Shown here one piece after another: positions 4,603 through 18,245 of a DNA stretch of 23,199 nucleotides (positions are counted from its first letter, which is position 1; each line of letters opens with the position of its first letter). Source of the stretch: an uncultured archaeon (GTDB lineage: Archaea > Asgardarchaeota > Lokiarchaeia > Sigyniarchaeales > SOKP01); NCBI GenBank assembly GCA_964493715.1, contig CAZBPC010000021.1, positions 12,501-35,699 on the forward strand, written 5' to 3'. Under the pieces are notes generated by a model, which had not been told where the DNA came from, ran no database searches, and saw only the letters and a list, made by a program, of their open reading frames with translations. The position numbers were made by a program, and so were the translations under genes.

Positions 4603-5730
4603 TTATTTTTGATTTAACCAGAAGTATAAATCGCCAATAATAACGTATTTATCTCGTTTGTTTTTTAATTCATTTAAATTTCTTAAATTCATTAACCATA
4701 AACTCGAGCGCAATTCATTTTTCAAGGTTCTTATTTCTCTTATTGTATTTGATATCGTGTTGTTTTTTCTGTCTTGCCATGCAGATTTTAAGAATTTATA
4801 AGCAAATCCACCAATATCAGCACCTAAGGCAATGGATTTTGCGATATCAATGCCAGTTTTCAATCCTCCTGTTCCAATAATTAATTTTTGAGAAACAGAT
4901 CGAACATTAATAATACTAACAGGTGTAGGAATACCCCATTCCCTAAACACATCAGCAGGATTACGAGAATAATTATCATTATCGAAATTATTACGTTTTG
5001 ACTCTATGGCTGCGAAACTCGTACCACCCGTACCTCCCACGTCAAATCCATCAAACCCTAGCTCATCAAGCATTAAAGCAAGTTCTTGGTTTAGTCCAGT
5101 GCCCACTTCTTTTGCAAGAAGAGGAATATCAGTACTTTCTCTAATCTTCTTAAAATTTTGTCTAAAATTTCTATAGGAGATGTTTCCCTTATATTGAACA
5201 AGTTCGTGCAAAGCATTTAAGTGAATCGCCATAATATCTGCATTTACCATATCAATACACTTGGTTAAATCTTCTTCCTTAAATAAAGTGGAACTTACTT
5301 GACCTAATCCGAGATTTCCGATAACCGGAATGGTAGGAGCGTGCTTGCGTACGATCTTAAAAGAATCAATAGTTGATGGATCCTCTAATCCAATTCGTTG
5401 ACTTCCAACACTCATGATAATATTTTCTTCTTCAGCAGCCTTGGCGAGGATTTCATTAATTTCCTTTGAAACAGGGTGACCTCCCGTTAAAGCTGAAATG
5501 CAAATAGGAGCCGAGATTTTCTTGTCGAAGCAGGTGAATGTGAGATCAATTTCTTCCAGATCAATCTCAGGAATCGCATGATGAATTAATTTTATATTGT
5601 CAAAATAATTAACGGAGTGTTGTACATCATATTCAAGAGGAATTCTTAGATGTTCCTCTTTTCTATTAAATATTTCTTTAGTTTTTTCAGGTTCAGGCAT
5701 ATTCTCTTTTTCCAATTTGCTACTAGTCAT
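4603..5730 (-). CDS. fni: Type 2 isopentenyl-diphosphate delta-isomerase (FMN-dependent)
   Basis: Motifs RKEEH, LTGG, VGSQR, HLNALHELVQ..G, KEVGTG, GGTGGTSFAAIE, WGIPT and GGLKTGIDIAKSIALGA are present. The start could instead be the ATG at 5700. Confidence 0.95.
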   Translation of the reverse strand: MTSSKLEKENMPEPEKTKEIFNRKEEHLRIPLEYDVQHSVNYFDNIKLIHHAIPEIDLEEIDLTFTCFDKKISAPICISALTGGHPVSKEINEILAKAAEEENIIMSVGSQRIGLEDPSTIDSFKIVRKHAPTIPVIGNLGLGQVSSTLFKEEDLTKCIDMVNADIMAIHLNALHELVQYKGNISYRNFRQNFKKIRESTDIPLLAKEVGTGLNQELALMLDELGFDGFDVGGTGGTSFAAIESKRNNFDNDNYSRNPADVFREWGIPTPVSIINVRSVSQKLIIGTGGLKTGIDIAKSIALGADIGGFAYKFLKSAWQDRKNNTISNTIREIRTLKNELRSSLWLMNLRNLNELKNKRDKYVIIGDLYFWLNQK

Positions 5731-5732
5731 TA

Positions 5733-6548
5733 TTATTCATTAATTAATATATTTGTACAATTTATTTTTTGATTCTTTAATGATTTAAAGATATTTCCTT
5801 CAATCAAACCATTTATTAATTGAACTGGAATTTTATTTTTACATATTTCTTTTATATGAGTAAGTTTACTATTTATACCACCAGTTACGTCTATTTTTTG
5901 ACCGAGATCTGCTAAAATTAAATCATCAAGCTCGTTAGAATAGCAATCAGTAAGTAAAGCAGGTTTTTTACCCTTTGACTCATCAATTTTAAATAATCCA
6001 TCTGATTCCATTGCAAAAACTACTTTAGAAACACTATAACTTTTAAGAGATTCACATAATTTTAGAATTATCTCATCTCCTGAAAGTATAGTAAATGATC
6101 CGCTTTTATCAAGCATGATATCACCATATAAAACAGGCATGATTTTAAGGTCTAATGCAGTTTCAAGAACATCTAAAGTTTCCAATGAAATTTTATTTGA
6201 TTTCTCAATAAAAATACTTGAAGTTTGAATCGAAAGAACAGGATAATTTCTTTCTAAAAATTGTTCAATTACATATGAGTTGAATTTGATCATTGAATGA
6301 TGAGTTTTAGCTACTCCAAGAATTTGATCTGGAATGGATTCATCAAATCCATCGGATATGCTATATTCCTTTGCTAAAGGATGACCAAATGACCCCCCAC
6401 CGTGAAGAAGAATGATCTTTTCATTAGCATCAATTATTTGTTTAACTGCACTGCTAATAACATCTTCTCGTATAGAATTGGGTTTATTTTTATCAGTGAG
6501 TAACCCTCCTCCCAACTTTAAAAGAATTACGCTATAATTTGTTCTCAA
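5733..6548 (-). CDS. ipk: Isopentenyl phosphate kinase (amino-acid kinase family)
   Basis: Motifs KLGGGLLTDK, HGGGSFGH, PVLYGD, SGD and DVTGG are present. It has a TTG start and lies in the MVA operon. Confidence 0.93.
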   Translation of the reverse strand: MRTNYSVILLKLGGGLLTDKNKPNSIREDVISSAVKQIIDANEKIILLHGGGSFGHPLAKEYSISDGFDESIPDQILGVAKTHHSMIKFNSYVIEQFLERNYPVLSIQTSSIFIEKSNKISLETLDVLETALDLKIMPVLYGDIMLDKSGSFTILSGDEIILKLCESLKSYSVSKVVFAMESDGLFKIDESKGKKPALLTDCYSNELDDLILADLGQKIDVTGGINSKLTHIKEICKNKIPVQLINGLIEGNIFKSLKNQKINCTNILINE

Positions 6549-6561
6549 TTTTGATTTACAC

Positions 6562-7527
6562 TCATCCTATCATAGTTTTCCAGGTTTCATACCCTTCCAT
6601 TTCAATAGCATTGGAGATATCATCTTGAATTTCTTCCGTTCTGGCTAAAGCAATGACTAAACCTCCTCGTCCAGTCCCTGTCAACTTAGCTCCAAGTGCT
6701 CCATTATTTAAAGCAATTTCTACTAACTTATCGTTAATTTTATTTGAGACAGTAATATCTTGAAGTAATTTGTGATTTTGGTTCATTAATTTACCAATAG
6801 TTACATCATCGCTCTTTAGAAATGCTTCTTTCGCTCTTATTGATATGTTTTTATAATCAGTAAATATTTTTTCAAATTTTTCTGGATAATCTTTTTTTAA
6901 TTTACGCACATCGGCAACAACTTCTGTAGTGGAAGCTGTTATTCCTGAATTAGCAATTACTAAAGGCATCTTTTTTGGTGATTGAAGTACTTCCATAATA
7001 TTTTTCCCCCCATTTAGATTTTTAACGAACCAAATCAATCCACCATAAGTGGAAGCGGTATTATCAATTCCTGATGGCGTTCCATGATATGCTTTTTCAC
7101 CTTCGTAGGCAGCTTCGTTAATTTTTTCATCATCTAATCTTAAATTAAAACTAATATTTATTGCACGGGCTAGAGAAGTAGCTTGTGCAGCAGAAGCACC
7201 GACACCACTAGCGGCAACCAAATCTCCAGAAAAAGTTATTTCAAGTTTCTGGTGTTTAACATCTATATTCATGTGTTCAATAACATTTTTAATGGATTGC
7301 ATTGCCTCATCGTATTTTTTCTCTTTATAACCGGGAGTGGCAAGACGTTGATCGATAACATCCCAGCCTTTTCCATCAACCACTTTAACTTCAGCTGTAG
7401 TATAAGAACCTAATGCTGAGGCAATAGCAGGAAGACCATAAACGACAAAATGATAGCGTTTATTCCGAATTTGGAATTAAATTTCGCCAAATAGTATAGT
7501 CTTTCCGAATCCTTTTCCAATTCCCAT
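6562..7527 (-). CDS. mvk: Mevalonate kinase (GHMP family), two exons: 7527-7483 and 7452-6562; about 311 aa after splicing
   Basis: The ATG at 7527 directly follows the upstream TAA and has SD GAGGTGA (7539-7533). Exon 1 reads MGIGKGFGKTILFGE and exon 2 reads HFVVYGLPAIA..., giving the MVK motif GK.ILFGEH.VVYG. Downstream motifs are SGVGASAA, HGTPSGIDN and GAKLTGTGRGG. The 273-aa ORF in the track lacks this N-terminus. Confidence 0.93.
7453..7482 (-). other. Putative 30-nt bulge-helix-bulge (BHB) intron in mvk mRNA
   Basis: The sequence ATTTAATTCCAAATTCGGAATAAACGCTAT has an in-frame TAA (7479-7477). A 4-bp helix GGCG/CGCU is flanked by 3-nt bulges AA^A and AU^C. An internal hairpin (UUUA-A-UUCC/GGAA-UAAA) is present. 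Removal gives GAA|CAT (Glu-His). Confidence 0.85.
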
Positions 7528-7917
7528 TTATTTCACCTCTACAATCCCTTCAGAGCCATTAACAATTAATATTTGTCCTGTTTTAATACTATCAATATCA
7601 ATCTTATCCACGCATGGAATTTCACTGATTATACAACCGACAGCAATGATTGTATCGATTTCTTTATTTACAATTGCTATTGGAGCGGTACTATTTTTCT
7701 TCATTCGATACATGGTGTATGAACCTACGGTTGATCCTTTACCAGTAGGGAAGACTAAAACTTTTCCTGTTATAGACTGACCTTCAAGCTCGTGTCCAAC
7801 CTCAACCACTTTACCTGTATCTGGATCTACACCTCCATAAAATGAAATTCCATCATTAGTTACTATAGCTTGTCCTTCAATTGTTCCTTTATATATCTTT
7901 CTTCCCATTAACTTCAT
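7528..7917 (-). CDS. Phosphomevalonate dehydratase small subunit (aconitase X swiveling domain, DUF126)
   Basis: Motifs ISFYGGVDP.TG, H.L.GQSITGKVLVFP.GKGSTVGSY and GCIISEIP are present. It overlaps the large-subunit stop (ATGA) and has SD AGGAGG at 7930-7925. Confidence 0.92.
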   Translation of the reverse strand: MKLMGRKIYKGTIEGQAIVTNDGISFYGGVDPDTGKVVEVGHELEGQSITGKVLVFPTGKGSTVGSYTMYRMKKNSTAPIAIVNKEIDTIIAVGCIISEIPCVDKIDIDSIKTGQILIVNGSEGIVEVK

Positions 7918-9107
7918 TTTATCGCCTCCTCAACGCATTCTTCAATTGTTCCAATTTTTACCTTGAATTTATTTTTAGCACGTCCATAATAACATGCTTT
8001 TGCTGAGTCCACCATAATTCCTTTGAAACGTCCCTTTATTGGAGCTACTACACAGCAAGTATCTGCTGCAAACTTAGCTCCAGCATCTTCAATTATTTTA
8101 GAATATCCCGCTTCGTCAGCAATTTTTTTAGTAGGTCGAGCAGTAGTAATCCAAAATTCTTTCTTCACTTCTTTTCCTTCCAATAATTTAGAAAGTTCCG
8201 CAATTTCATGAATTGAAGCATGAGGACATCCTATACTAACGAAATCTACTTCAATATCATTATCAATAAGTTCAACTCGAGCTTTTGCCAAGTCTTTAGG
8301 ACTAATCTCAACCACCTTCTCACTCGGTTTGGGATATTTATTATACTCTGGAGTGATTCCATCCATGTGGAATAATGCTGTTCCGCCATAAGTTGCCACG
8401 GAAGCACAAAAAGATTTGAGTTCTTCAACTGTTGCGCAAGGGATTCCAGTGATGTATGGAATTTTTTTTCCTAATTCCCCTAATTTATCGCCAATTAATT
8501 TTCCTAGCACTCCAAATTCATCTGTACCTTTAACTGGTGTATTTACTTTAAATAATACTTGACCATAACGATTCTTATCTATATGATATCCATAATTAGG
8601 TGTCTTTCCCGTTAATGCAGCAGCTAATGCACTTGGTCCGCCCTCACGATTTGTTCGAGCACCTATTATAGAATTTGAATAACATACTGCACTGCTTTCT
8701 GCCCACGCAATATGTTGTCCATAATGAGGAGTGTTTCCAATTAGGTAGGGAGTACAGGAACATGTAGTTATTATTCCCATTTTTGCAAAAGCATCCAAAG
8801 CTCTATTTTGATTTATAGCGAATTCTTCATCTATTCCTAATGCTTGCCAATTTTCACGATCCATTCCCGCTGGATTTAATGTCGTTAAAACCCTAACCTT
8901 TCCATCTTCTGCCATTTCATTTAGAAATTCTAATCCTGCTTCGCCAAGATTGTCATATGAAACTCCTGCTATTTGAACGCCATAAACATCGATCATATTC
9001 TCAGCTCCAAAAATATCGCCGAGCGTAGCTAATATTTCCATAGATTTTTTTGTAGCTTTTCCATATTTCCCATCGAGCATTTCTTTTTCTTCTTGATTTA
9101 ATTTCAT
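7914..9107 (-). CDS. Phosphomevalonate dehydratase large subunit (aconitase X catalytic domain, DUF521)
   Basis: Motifs GVSY, TTLNP, TCSCTPY, AWAESSA, GARTNREGG, IGCPHAS, DTCCVV and DSAK are present. The ATG at 9107 (SD AGGTG at 9121-9117) is preferred over the GTG at 9119. Confidence 0.92.
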   Translation of the reverse strand: MKLNQEEKEMLDGKYGKATKKSMEILATLGDIFGAENMIDVYGVQIAGVSYDNLGEAGLEFLNEMAEDGKVRVLTTLNPAGMDRENWQALGIDEEFAINQNRALDAFAKMGIITTCSCTPYLIGNTPHYGQHIAWAESSAVCYSNSIIGARTNREGGPSALAAALTGKTPNYGYHIDKNRYGQVLFKVNTPVKGTDEFGVLGKLIGDKLGELGKKIPYITGIPCATVEELKSFCASVATYGGTALFHMDGITPEYNKYPKPSEKVVEISPKDLAKARVELIDNDIEVDFVSIGCPHASIHEIAELSKLLEGKEVKKEFWITTARPTKKIADEAGYSKIIEDAGAKFAADTCCVVAPIKGRFKGIMVDSAKACYYGRAKNKFKVKIGTIEECVEEAIK

Positions 9108-9119
9108 AGTCCAATACAC

Positions 9120-16547: not shown

Positions 16548-18245
16548 GTGGCCAAAGACAAGAAAAAGAAAAAGAAAGGAGAAGAACAACAAGACTTCGG
16601 TACGTTCTCCCAGTTAATGGGAGGTTCTTCAGATTCAAAATCACACAAAGGAAAAGATAAAAAAGCCCAAAAAGCAGTAGATATCTCCTCAGGAATACAG
16701 ATTGGAGCACAAATAGATCGATCGAATGATAATTTATTTCTCGGAACTGATTACAGAGAAATTCTTATCCCAGATAGACCTTGGGCTGAAATTCTAGCAG
16801 ATATTGAACATTGGACTCCATTACCATTCACTCACGGTATTGAAATGGAATTAATTATTGCTGATGATATTGGAGACTATCCCCCAGGAGACGAGATGGT
16901 GTTTCGGATGAAAGAAATCGTAAAAGACGCTATAAAAATAATGGACCAGATCCTGTATCAAGGAAGAGCTGAGTTCCTTCCAGTTCCGGATTTCATTCGA
17001 CAAAAAGTTATGGCTCGTCCTTGGGGTCGGGATGATCTCGAAAAGGGATATGCTATGGATATCCGTTATAGATTACCCAATAATGTTGAAGTAGATATTG
17101 ACACTTTTGCTCGTGATGGCAACGTAACTGCTGTGACATATATATTGGAACTCGTAACTCCTCCATGTGAATATGCTGAGGAACTCGCATACTGGGCAAG
17201 CACTCTTTTCCTTTTAGCTAAAAATACTTTACCTAATGATCTCCACATAATCGCTTCAGCAATTAATCCTGCAGCGAAAGAATATATGCGTGGCTTGACC
17301 CAAGCTGATCACTCTCACTTAGGTTCTTTTGGCTCAGATTTAGAAAAGATTCAAGCATATTGCATGATAAGAAATTTTCTTCCTCATATCATTGCATTAA
17401 CCTGCAATTCTCCCATATTGAACAACCAACCAACAGATGTAGTAAAAATAGTTGATAGAAGGATCACTGCTCCTAATTGTGTGCGATCCTTAAGATTGAA
17501 AAACAATACGACAATGCTAAGTAATAATGATCCGAAACATTTTATTCCATATTTAACATCTGCGGATGAAGAATCTATTAAATATTTCCTTCAAGTAGTT
17601 CAAAAAGCAAGCCTGGAAGATGGCCGGTTCCAAGATGTATTTCCATTTACAGATTGGGGCACTATTGAAATTCGTATTAGTGATGCCCAAATCTCGATAT
17701 GTCGTAGAATTGGTATTGCATTATTAATCCAAACACTCTGTTATAAAGCCGTCAAACTTCTTCAGAAAGGTGTATGGGTACCCGATGCCGGTTCTGAAAC
17801 CATAGCCTATAACAGGAAAACTTCAATAGAACGTGGTCTAATTTCATTATTCCGTCCTCAAAATCTTACTCGCGAGCATTTGGCACAATATGATCCTGCA
17901 TTTGCAGAACAATATCTTGGTCCTGAAGCTCAACCTGTTAGATATATGACTCAAGCAGTTCAAAGAATGTTCTTTTATCTAAAGGATGAGCTGAAAGAGC
18001 TTGGTTTTCTATACTCTCCATTCTTAAAACCAATCCTTCAGTCTGTTTTTGGGAGTGTAAGTTATGCAAAGCCTCCAATAACAGAAGCAGAGTATCAATT
18101 GAGCTTATATCAATATAAATTAGATAATAATGAAGATCCAAACATTCTCTACGATTTGATCTACTTTACCATTCAATACTGCCAAGACCCCCTAAATAAT
18201 CCTCTAACTGGGACACTAACTCTTCCGAAAGAAATGAGAGAATAA
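16548..18245 (+). CDS. Glutamate-cysteine ligase family 2 (GCS2/YbdK-like) carboxylate-amine ligase with Lys-rich disordered N-terminus
   Basis: Motifs THGIEMEL (ExE), LELVTPP, DHSHLG, LPHIIAL..NSP and GTIEIRISDAQ are present. The start is GTG. Confidence 0.82.
   Translation: MAKDKKKKKKGEEQQDFGTFSQLMGGSSDSKSHKGKDKKAQKAVDISSGIQIGAQIDRSNDNLFLGTDYREILIPDRPWAEILADIEHWTPLPFTHGIEMELIIADDIGDYPPGDEMVFRMKEIVKDAIKIMDQILYQGRAEFLPVPDFIRQKVMARPWGRDDLEKGYAMDIRYRLPNNVEVDIDTFARDGNVTAVTYILELVTPPCEYAEELAYWASTLFLLAKNTLPNDLHIIASAINPAAKEYMRGLTQADHSHLGSFGSDLEKIQAYCMIRNFLPHIIALTCNSPILNNQPTDVVKIVDRRITAPNCVRSLRLKNNTTMLSNNDPKHFIPYLTSADEESIKYFLQVVQKASLEDGRFQDVFPFTDWGTIEIRISDAQISICRRIGIALLIQTLCYKAVKLLQKGVWVPDAGSETIAYNRKTSIERGLISLFRPQNLTREHLAQYDPAFAEQYLGPEAQPVRYMTQAVQRMFFYLKDELKELGFLYSPFLKPILQSVFGSVSYAKPPITEAEYQLSLYQYKLDNNEDPNILYDLIYFTIQYCQDPLNNPLTGTLTLPKEMRE

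Follow-up and report, generated by a model that had tools for sequence, protein, structure and literature searches.

The archaeal splicing endonuclease EndA cuts bulge-helix-bulge (BHB) motifs after the second nucleotide of each bulge, the same rule that applies at tRNA position 37/38. An intron in the cbf5 pre-mRNA of Crenarchaeota has reportedly been described by Watanabe in 2002 and by Yoshinari in 2006. Here we analyse a 30-nucleotide (nt) insert in the mevalonate kinase gene (mvk) of an uncultured archaeon, at positions 7453-7482 of the window, by which we mean the whole 23,199-nt stretch of DNA under study. Very probably, this insert is a relaxed BHB intron (HBh' type) in the mvk pre-mRNA and one of a family of 29-32-nt mRNA mini-introns. 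A preliminary description had already read it as an intron spliced by EndA and RtcB, and that reading is supported by the match between predicted cuts and homologous junction, by insert lengths of 30 or 31 nt with stops, by covariation, by the enzymes encoded and by the presence of the insert in independent DNA.

The accessible text of Yokobori 2009 (PMC2738675) states that pre-mRNA splicing had been confirmed for no archaeal gene besides cbf5. In its accessible part, a 2020 paper (PMC7714728) reports a BHB intron in the 5' untranslated region (UTR) of the HVO_1309 mRNA of Haloferax volcanii that is processed by the archaeal splicing endonuclease, and names cbf5 as the only further archaeal BHB intron reported besides this 5'-UTR case. 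The HVO_1309 intron differs from the mvk insert in that, as described there, it lies in an untranslated leader and breaks no reading frame. As far as the accessible literature characterizes them, the cbf5 introns resemble the mvk insert in several respects: both are of BHB type in archaeal coding sequence, often with a relaxed motif and together with a hetero-oligomeric EndA, both are gained and lost among related species, and both are overlooked by gene callers. The differences from the crenarchaeal case are that the host here is an Asgard archaeon, that another gene is interrupted, and that the inserts are uniform in size (29-32 nt) and number ~13 in this single genome rather than one. Furthermore, the cbf5 introns of the first species were experimentally confirmed, whereas the mvk intron is a prediction from sequence. 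Membership of the mvk insert in the crenarchaeal cbf5 intron lineage was considered and rejected, since the host gene is mevalonate kinase and the organism's own cbf5 (TruB_N match, contig C34:27218-27559, minus strand) is uninterrupted, being one 343-amino-acid frame with no insert; only the mechanism would be the same.

BHB introns of archaeal tRNAs share with the mvk insert the motif, the cut rule, the enzymes and a similar size class. They differ in their host, since the mvk insert would be removed from an mRNA that is open to ribosomes and lacks a tRNA body to aid recognition, and in which only 6-7 nt of the motif come from the exon. Outside the archaea, the HAC1 and XBP1 mRNAs carry a short coding-sequence intron that is cut at stem-loops by IRE1, without a spliceosome, and is sealed by RtcB in metazoa; the process is stress-regulated. 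The likeness lies in spliceosome-free removal by a protein endonuclease and in splicing that alters the protein made, whereas the endonuclease there is IRE1 rather than EndA/TSEN and stress regulation is a feature of HAC1/XBP1. Translational bypass elements, such as those of phage T4 gene 60 and the mitochondrial byps, likewise place a short hairpin insert with a stop inside a conserved gene. They differ from the mvk insert, where the take-off and landing codons are unmatched; nor are bypass elements characterized by an exon that pairs with the insert.

Fold and boundaries of the mvk insert

The mvk gene lies on the minus strand of the window. The parts of the gene and of the predicted motif are as follows.

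7533-7539, minus strand: Shine-Dalgarno (SD)-like GAGGTGA, 5 nt 5' of the mvk start codon and inside the final codons of a DUF126 gene
7483-7527, minus strand: mvk exon 1, 15 codons, from ATG 7527-7525 to the Glu codon 7485-7483
7453-7482, minus strand: putative mini-intron, 30 nt, with an in-frame TAA at 7479-7477
6562-7452, minus strand: mvk exon 2, from the His codon 7452-7450 onward, 296 codons plus the stop 6564-6562
7485-7488, minus strand: 5' strand of the central helix H, GGCG (exon), 4 base pairs (bp) with 7455-7458 in the minimum-free-energy fold
7455-7458, minus strand: 3' strand of the central helix H, CGCU (intron), in the minimum-free-energy fold
7482-7484, minus strand: 5' bulge AAA, predicted EndA cut between 7483 and 7482
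7452-7454, minus strand: 3' bulge AUC, predicted EndA cut between 7453 and 7452
7459-7481, minus strand: inner hairpin h', 4 bp, bulged A7477, 4 bp and a 6-nt loop (7472-7467)

The SD, ATG, exon 1, 30-nt insert, TAA and His junction agree base for base with the preliminary description. When the insert is left in place, the reading frame from ATG 7527 encodes only a 16-residue peptide, again as first claimed. By itself, exon 2 scores 216 bits against the TIGR00549 equivalog (cut-off 163.05) over profile positions 11-276, and it also matches Pfam GHMP_kinases_N and GHMP_kinases_C. An intron-less orthologue (L007) reaches 231.4 bits over profile positions 3-276.

The minimum-free-energy fold, computed on 7500-7440, gave the same helix, 5' bulge, 4+4-bp stem with a bulged A and 6-nt loop that had been drawn before. 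The central helix consists of four pairs between 7488-7485 and 7458-7455 (G-U, G-C, C-G and G-C), the number that BHB introns require, and the two 3-nt bulges lie on opposite strands with a rule-placed cut in each, which is the BHB arrangement. The inner helix h' has 8 bp, and the outer helix h is reduced to a single U7489-A7451 pair. The motif is thus of the HBh' form and not a strict hBHBh': the helix and bulges of the claimed BHB motif are borne out, in a relaxed rather than canonical form. Relaxed BHB classes, hBH and HBh', which retain at least one flanking helix of 2 pairs or more, are defined in the accessible parts of a preprint (10.64898/2026.10.13.758758) and of PMC5829648. A scan of the whole window against Rfam returned no match at gathering scores.

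Cuts placed by the rule (7483/7482 and 7453/7452) excise exactly the 30 nt that have no counterpart in intron-less orthologues. RNA structure and protein homology therefore give the same boundaries, as the preliminary description had held.

Distribution and constraint among relatives

Relatives came from two sources, 41 related genomes that were searched and a scan that took one genome for each species. Together these gave 60 distinct mvk genes of this type with a readable junction; two further loci, cut by a contig end, were left unscored. An insert at the same site is present in 22 of the 60 genes and precisely absent from the other 38 (27 ingroup and 11 outgroup), so that alignment of related mvk genes, proposed earlier as a check, reveals a polymorphic insert. 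In all 38 intron-less genes the Glu and His codons are adjacent, and eight remoter mvk genes (~30% identity) are likewise uninterrupted at this site. The close relatives are mostly labelled Promethearchaeota, an Asgard phylum, in agreement with the Asgard host that had been suspected. In a protein tree of 59 rows, the distribution of the insert needs at least seven changes, and well-supported branches force at least three. The earliest ingroup branches already carry the insert, whereas none of the 11 outgroup rows does. Together with the evident homology of the inserts, this pattern would fit one gain of the mvk insert followed by several precise losses.

Homologues of the insert occur at the same site in 21 species besides this genome. 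The insert is 31 nt long in 19 of the 22 genes and 30 nt in the other three, with a stop in the exon-1 frame in every case, while exon 2 is open and conserved (68-87% identity) in the 22 species. Because an insert length such as 31 nt is not divisible by three, a translated insertion is ruled out. The exon-2 frame is open through the 31-nt insert in four relatives (L010, L011, L014 and L015; 323 amino acids), whereas three others (L017, L020 and L021) carry an exon-2-frame stop directly before the His codon, leaving an open frame of 296. Since stops thus stand in both frames in several species, L017, L020 and L021 among them, a frameshift is ruled out as well.

These data bear on translational recoding without splicing, in which ribosomes would bypass the insert, read through its stop or shift frame over it. 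Such recoding would account for the shortness of the insert, for its hairpin and for a stop close behind the last exon-1 codon, as well as for the frames that stay open in L010, L011, L014 and L015. In phage T4 gene 60, ribosomes bypass an insert that is likewise short, forms a hairpin and has its stop just past the take-off codon. In the mvk genes, however, the codon before His is never a Glu codon in the 22 sequences and the last insert codons vary, so a match between take-off and landing sites is absent. Because the inserts at this one homologous site measure either 30 or 31 nt, two different recoding mechanisms would be needed, and no frameshift would rescue the three genes that have a stop just before the His codon. 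Translation of the insert would also place 10 extra residues in the most conserved motif of the protein. Finally, recoding leaves unexplained both the pairing of exon with insert and the restoration by the BHB rule of ~12 other genes with 29-32-nt inserts (below). Taken together, we regard recoding as very unlikely.

The helices were examined in a plain MAFFT alignment of the 22 intron-bearing genes (A1). The BHB structure pairs 85.2% of cells in A1; sliding the partner by 1-3 columns lowers this share to 41-49%. Changes on both sides are seen in five of the 13 pairs; the mean after shuffling is 2.3, and 3 of 500 shuffles reach five. In the inner hairpin, four of nine aligned pairs changed on both sides. 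The central helix varies little: pair 17-47 is C-G in 21 rows and U-A in one (L020), pair 16-48 is G-C in 21 rows and G-U in one (L048), and the outermost pair, 15-49, is G-U in 13 rows and G.A in nine. In L020 the central helix has passed from GGCG/CGCU to GGUG/CACU, a double compensatory change. The helix covariation that had been suggested as a check was accordingly found, in L020 and in the five pairs changed on both sides. All four central pairs form in 13 of the 22 genes, a constrained fold gives an inner hairpin of 6-9 bp in 21 of 22, and the inner stem closes right beside the bulge in 13 of 22.

Codon usage in the exon gives the clearest signal. In 21 of the 22 intron-bearing genes, the Gly codon that pairs with the intron through its third base reads GGC; the remaining gene has GGT, together with a compensating intron change. 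Among the 27 intron-less ingroup genes this codon is GGA in 11, GGT in 8, GGG in 5 and GGC in 3. The Phe codon ahead of it is TTT in all 22 intron-bearing genes, compared with TTC in 17 and TTT in 10 of the intron-less ingroup. Exon synonymous sites are frozen, in this alignment, only where and when they are predicted to pair with the insert. The remaining exon-1 codons of the intron-bearing genes show synonymous variation with conserved amino acids, so exon 1 is translated.

We also considered whether the insert arose during assembly or sequencing, given that the source is a metagenome-assembled genome in 160 contigs. Contigs from four other public DNA runs (X3, X4, X6 and X9), which come from different samples, span 7453-7482 with no indel and no joint, and they differ by single-nucleotide polymorphisms elsewhere in the stretch. 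The insert, which the preliminary description had proposed to confirm in DNA, is hence present unchanged in four independent runs, and its diverged homologues occur in 21 further assemblies. The probability of an artefact is practically negligible.

A different question is whether mvk still functions. In the genome (3.68 Mb, 160 contigs, rated 100% complete), mvk has a single match of 100% identity, and three further GHMP kinases are 26-40% identical to it; the interrupted mvk is the only gene to pass the TIGR00549 cut-off. No intact mvk was found elsewhere in the genome by this measure, in line with the earlier expectation. A second GHMP kinase (contig C2 ~17001-17945, minus strand; locus L002:1477-2421) scores 147.6 bits, below the cut-off of 163. 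Because this one other kinase comes near the cut-off, it may provide back-up mevalonate kinase activity. The earlier view that the gene is essential thus carries the second GHMP kinase as a caveat.

The genes around mvk are arranged on the same strand.

7914-9119, minus strand: aconitase-X-like protein gene, 401 amino acids, upstream of mvk
7528-7917, minus strand: DUF126 protein gene, upstream of mvk
5733-6548, minus strand: isopentenyl phosphate kinase gene, downstream of mvk (NF040647, 208 bits, over cut-off)
4603-5730, minus strand: type 2 isopentenyl diphosphate (IPP) isomerase gene, downstream of mvk (TIGR02151, 354 bits, over cut-off)

We take the DUF126 and aconitase-X-like pair to be the phosphomevalonate dehydratase of the archaeal mevalonate pathway. 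The mvk start position abuts the stop of the upstream gene, and exon 1 has no other in-frame start. Of the 22 intron-bearing genes, six have ACG at the start-codon position and one has CTG; ACG also stands there in two intron-less genes (non-ATG loci L010, L011, L014, L015, L049, L052, L005, L040 and L043).

Were mvk a pseudogene, or a two-piece remnant with an inert hairpin insertion, another GHMP kinase would have to phosphorylate mevalonate. The second kinase, just under the cut-off, could be that enzyme, and an ACG or CTG start position in 7 of 22 intron-bearing genes would suit decay. On the other hand, exon 2 is open and conserved in 22 species, exon 1 is under amino-acid constraint, mvk lies within an intact operon of mevalonate-pathway genes, and it is the sole gene in the genome above the mevalonate kinase cut-off. 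Similar inserts moreover interrupt RtcB, leucyl-tRNA synthetase (LeuRS) and aEF-2, for the last of which a second EF-2-family match, 41% identical, lies on contig C1. Loss of function is, in our view, extremely unlikely.

Splicing enzymes and further mini-introns in the genome

Two genes with an EndA domain (PF01974; loci L087:1150-1773 and L088:1210-1827) are present in the genome. The best solved match of the 207-residue EndA alpha-like protein is 3p1z_B, the catalytic subunit of the Aeropyrum pernix heterotetramer (E = 1e-36). The alpha-like protein retains the aligned Tyr, His and Lys and, further, the Lys and Arg that correspond to K44 and R46 of the A. pernix Crenarchaea-specific loop. 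In the 205-residue paralogue, the position aligned to the catalytic His is a Ser, as would be expected of a structural subunit. According to the accessible text of PMC3241643, the A. pernix loop confers cleavage of relaxed motifs in unusual contexts, and the accessible part of PMC5829648 reports Asgard archaea with an (alpha-beta)2 EndA carrying the L1 loop. The genome encodes a predicted alpha/beta-type, two-subunit EndA with the broad-specificity loop. The EndA of Haloferax volcanii is of the narrow-specificity type. RtcB (PF01139, 484.5 bits) and archease (141.7 bits) are encoded in adjacent genes.

The RtcB gene is itself split by a 29-nt insert (locus L090, ~1469-1497). The stretches that match RtcB Pfam positions 1-47 and 48-426 are separated by 29 nt and by a change of frame. 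The fold here comprises a 4-bp helix with a 3-nt bulge, and a stem of 9 bp with a 4-nt loop. Its folding z-score of -1.62 is weak for a single sequence. Application of the BHB cut rule to RtcB removes exactly the 29 nt needed to restore the frame. Among 29 readable RtcB loci the insert is present in two (this genome, G000, and G001) and precisely absent from 27.

To find further inserts, the genome was scanned for sites that combine a 4-bp helix with a 3-nt bulge and an inner hairpin, and at which rule-defined removal joins two otherwise broken open frames. As controls, we used six scans in which one cut was shifted by 1-2 nt; shifting both cuts equally keeps the frame, so this was not a valid control and was not used. 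Under strict settings (hairpin 20-26 nt, energy <= -6 kcal/mol and at least 40 codons in each flanking frame), 10 loci were obtained with the real rule and 2 in each of the six controls. The control loci are alternative parses of two real loci and one adjacent-gene pair; the latter, C58:1608-1640, is the only control locus outside the real set and, with its terminator-like hairpin and its SD, looks like two neighbouring genes. Loose scans showed no enrichment (158,558 real versus ~160,000 control; 15,738 versus ~16,000), and neither did a scan at energy <= -6 with all hairpin lengths (75 real versus 71-88 control). Enrichment is confined to hairpins of 20-26 nt with both frames of at least 25-40 codons. 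The candidate inserts besides that of mvk are listed below, by contig of the assembly.

C2:12136-12164, minus strand: RtcB, Pfam positions 1-47 / 48-426
C6:80447-80476, plus strand: Ras-like GTPase, Pfam positions 1-58 / 60-160
C44:26027-26056, plus strand: LeuRS, tRNA-synt_1g positions 4-46 / 48-135
C39:8748-8777, plus strand: NAD synthase (NadE), Pfam positions 3-143 / 144-242
C28:23007-23036, plus strand: thiolase, thiolase C domain positions 14-49 / 52-143
C8:45566-45597, plus strand: CdhD, Pfam positions 7-178 / 181-227
C76:5211-5240, minus strand: aEF-2, 30 nt; exon 2 from profile position 48, exon 1 too short to score
C2:84740-84771, plus strand: PFK; exon 2 from profile position 11, exon 1 too short to score
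C2:119236-119265, plus strand: alpha/beta hydrolase; exon 2 from profile position 12, exon 1 too short to score
C53:2033-2062, minus strand: TPP enzyme; Pfam match one-sided or weak
C28:34412-34441, plus strand: VWA_CoxE protein; Pfam match one-sided or weak
C145:299-328, minus strand: thiolase-N-like protein; Pfam match one-sided or weak

Pfam coordinates are contiguous across the insert in RtcB, the Ras-like GTPase, LeuRS, NadE, thiolase and CdhD. The scan for further BHB-split genes that had been proposed at the outset therefore places the mvk insert among at least ~13. A FAD-dependent oxidoreductase gene (C52:6951-6981, minus strand) was examined and rejected: it has a strong BHB-like hairpin and a frame from profile position 8/416, and its upstream reading is unlike the missing N-terminus. 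This site may be an intron with other boundaries, or chance. Further hits of the scan, which are bare candidates, include sites on C86, C51, C29 and C81 and at C1:117306.

The aEF-2 insert was compared across loci L135-L163. It is present in 3 of 29 readable loci (genomes G000, G015 and G023; loci L134, L140 and L141) and precisely absent from 26, and its stem differs among the three carriers. Since G015 has the aEF-2 insert without the mvk insert, the introns are distributed independently of each other.

The tRNA genes of this organism offer a further comparison. Although the genome is rated 100% complete, ARAGORN identified only 27 of them, of which 12 have introns of 11-39 nt; many tRNA genes are probably too interrupted for recognition. 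The accessible text of a preprint (10.64898/2026.10.13.758758) describes Asgard tRNA genes as heavily interrupted, with a median intron of 22-23 nt, and the low ARAGORN count fits this. By our own reading of its flanks, a 29-nt tRNA-Thr intron on contig C4 matches the mvk insert in its 4-bp helix, its 3-nt bulges and its hairpin. A rule-type 4-bp helix lies within 3 nt of the ARAGORN boundary in 8 of the 12 introns and exactly there in 2, which is a weak calibration, those boundaries not being BHB-based.

From these elements a splicing pathway can be proposed. In the transcript, exon 7488-7485 would pair with intron 7458-7455, and the intron's own 8-bp hairpin would stack on this central helix, leaving a 3-nt bulge on each strand. 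The two-subunit EndA would cut after the second nucleotide of each bulge, and RtcB with archease would join the exons and release a 30-mer, probably as a circle. The spliced mRNA would encode a 311-residue kinase with the N-terminal motif found in intron-less orthologues, whereas the unspliced mRNA would yield the 16-residue peptide only. Cleavage, ligation, the circular fate of the 30-mer and any regulatory use are steps that we infer from the DNA.

Enzymes different from EndA and RtcB could also take the insert out of the RNA, such as some other structure-specific nuclease acting with an ATP-dependent RNA ligase. An interrupted RtcB gene, and a motif lacking a real outer helix, would both be easier to understand if this were so. 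The geometry, however, is exactly EndA-like, with a 4-bp helix and 3-nt bulges, and predicts the correct junction in each of ~13 genes. The EndA alpha-like protein, moreover, keeps the loop residues that in A. pernix permit relaxed motifs outside the tRNA context, and crenarchaeal cbf5 introns with relaxed motifs are linked to hetero-oligomeric EndA in the accessible text of PMC2738675. We consider the involvement of such other machinery highly improbable.

Several observations weigh against an EndA-spliced mvk intron. The mvk fold, at -8.6 kcal/mol (z = -1.44), is within the range of chance, 14 of 200 shuffles being as good, and U7489-A7451 is the sole outward closure of the 3' bulge 7454-7452. 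Nine of the 22 relatives have G.A as the outermost central pair, which leaves three pairs; the minimum-energy fold gives a bulge of more than 3 nt in the nine whose inner stem does not close beside it; and L021 forms only four inner pairs in the constrained fold. RNAalifold, run on the MAFFT alignment, did not recover the BHB and returned another weak consensus (-3.32 kcal/mol), a failure that we attribute to indels misaligning the hairpin. The relatives are kin and not independent, so that the counts overstate the number of events. The sequencing runs listed for the organism are DNA metagenomes only, none of them RNA. Lastly, as the RtcB gene is itself interrupted, ligation presupposes RtcB protein that has already been made. 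Because the folding energy is unremarkable, the case against chance rests on the same-site inserts, the covariation, the codon freezing and the genome-wide test.

Altogether, we think it likely that this genus of Promethearchaeota maintains uniform 29-32-nt BHB mini-introns in housekeeping coding sequences, at least ~13 of them in this genome, which are gained and lost one by one. Introns of the RTCB/TSEN type would then be common and dynamic in the nearest prokaryotic kin of eukaryotes, and the RtcB intron would render the system reliant on the very ligase whose gene it interrupts.

Novelty and implications

A literature search outside subscription journals and supplements brought up no account of BHB introns in the protein genes of Asgard archaea, and the word 'mRNA' does not occur in the Asgard tRNA preprint (10.64898/2026.10.13.758758). 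What we rate as new is the occurrence of many uniform putative mini-introns in coding sequences of an Asgard genus, the ligase gene included; a single mvk intron would represent a known mechanism.

If these inserts are spliced, Asgard genomes are systematically mis-annotated, with mvk, RtcB, LeuRS and aEF-2 called as truncated, split or pseudogenes, and metabolic reconstructions are distorted as a result. An archaeon with coupled transcription and translation would have to protect or time the splicing of a dozen mRNAs, and the coexistence of intron-bearing genes with ribosomes would become directly testable. The RtcB intron would create a self-dependent loop. The distribution of the inserts, species by species, offers natural data on how introns are gained and precisely lost. 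Splicing would further provide a route by which introns of protein genes could spread by means of EndA and RtcB alone, in the lineage nearest to eukaryotes. If this is true, the enzymes that eukaryotes inherited, TSEN and RTCB, handle protein-gene introns in their closest prokaryotic relatives.

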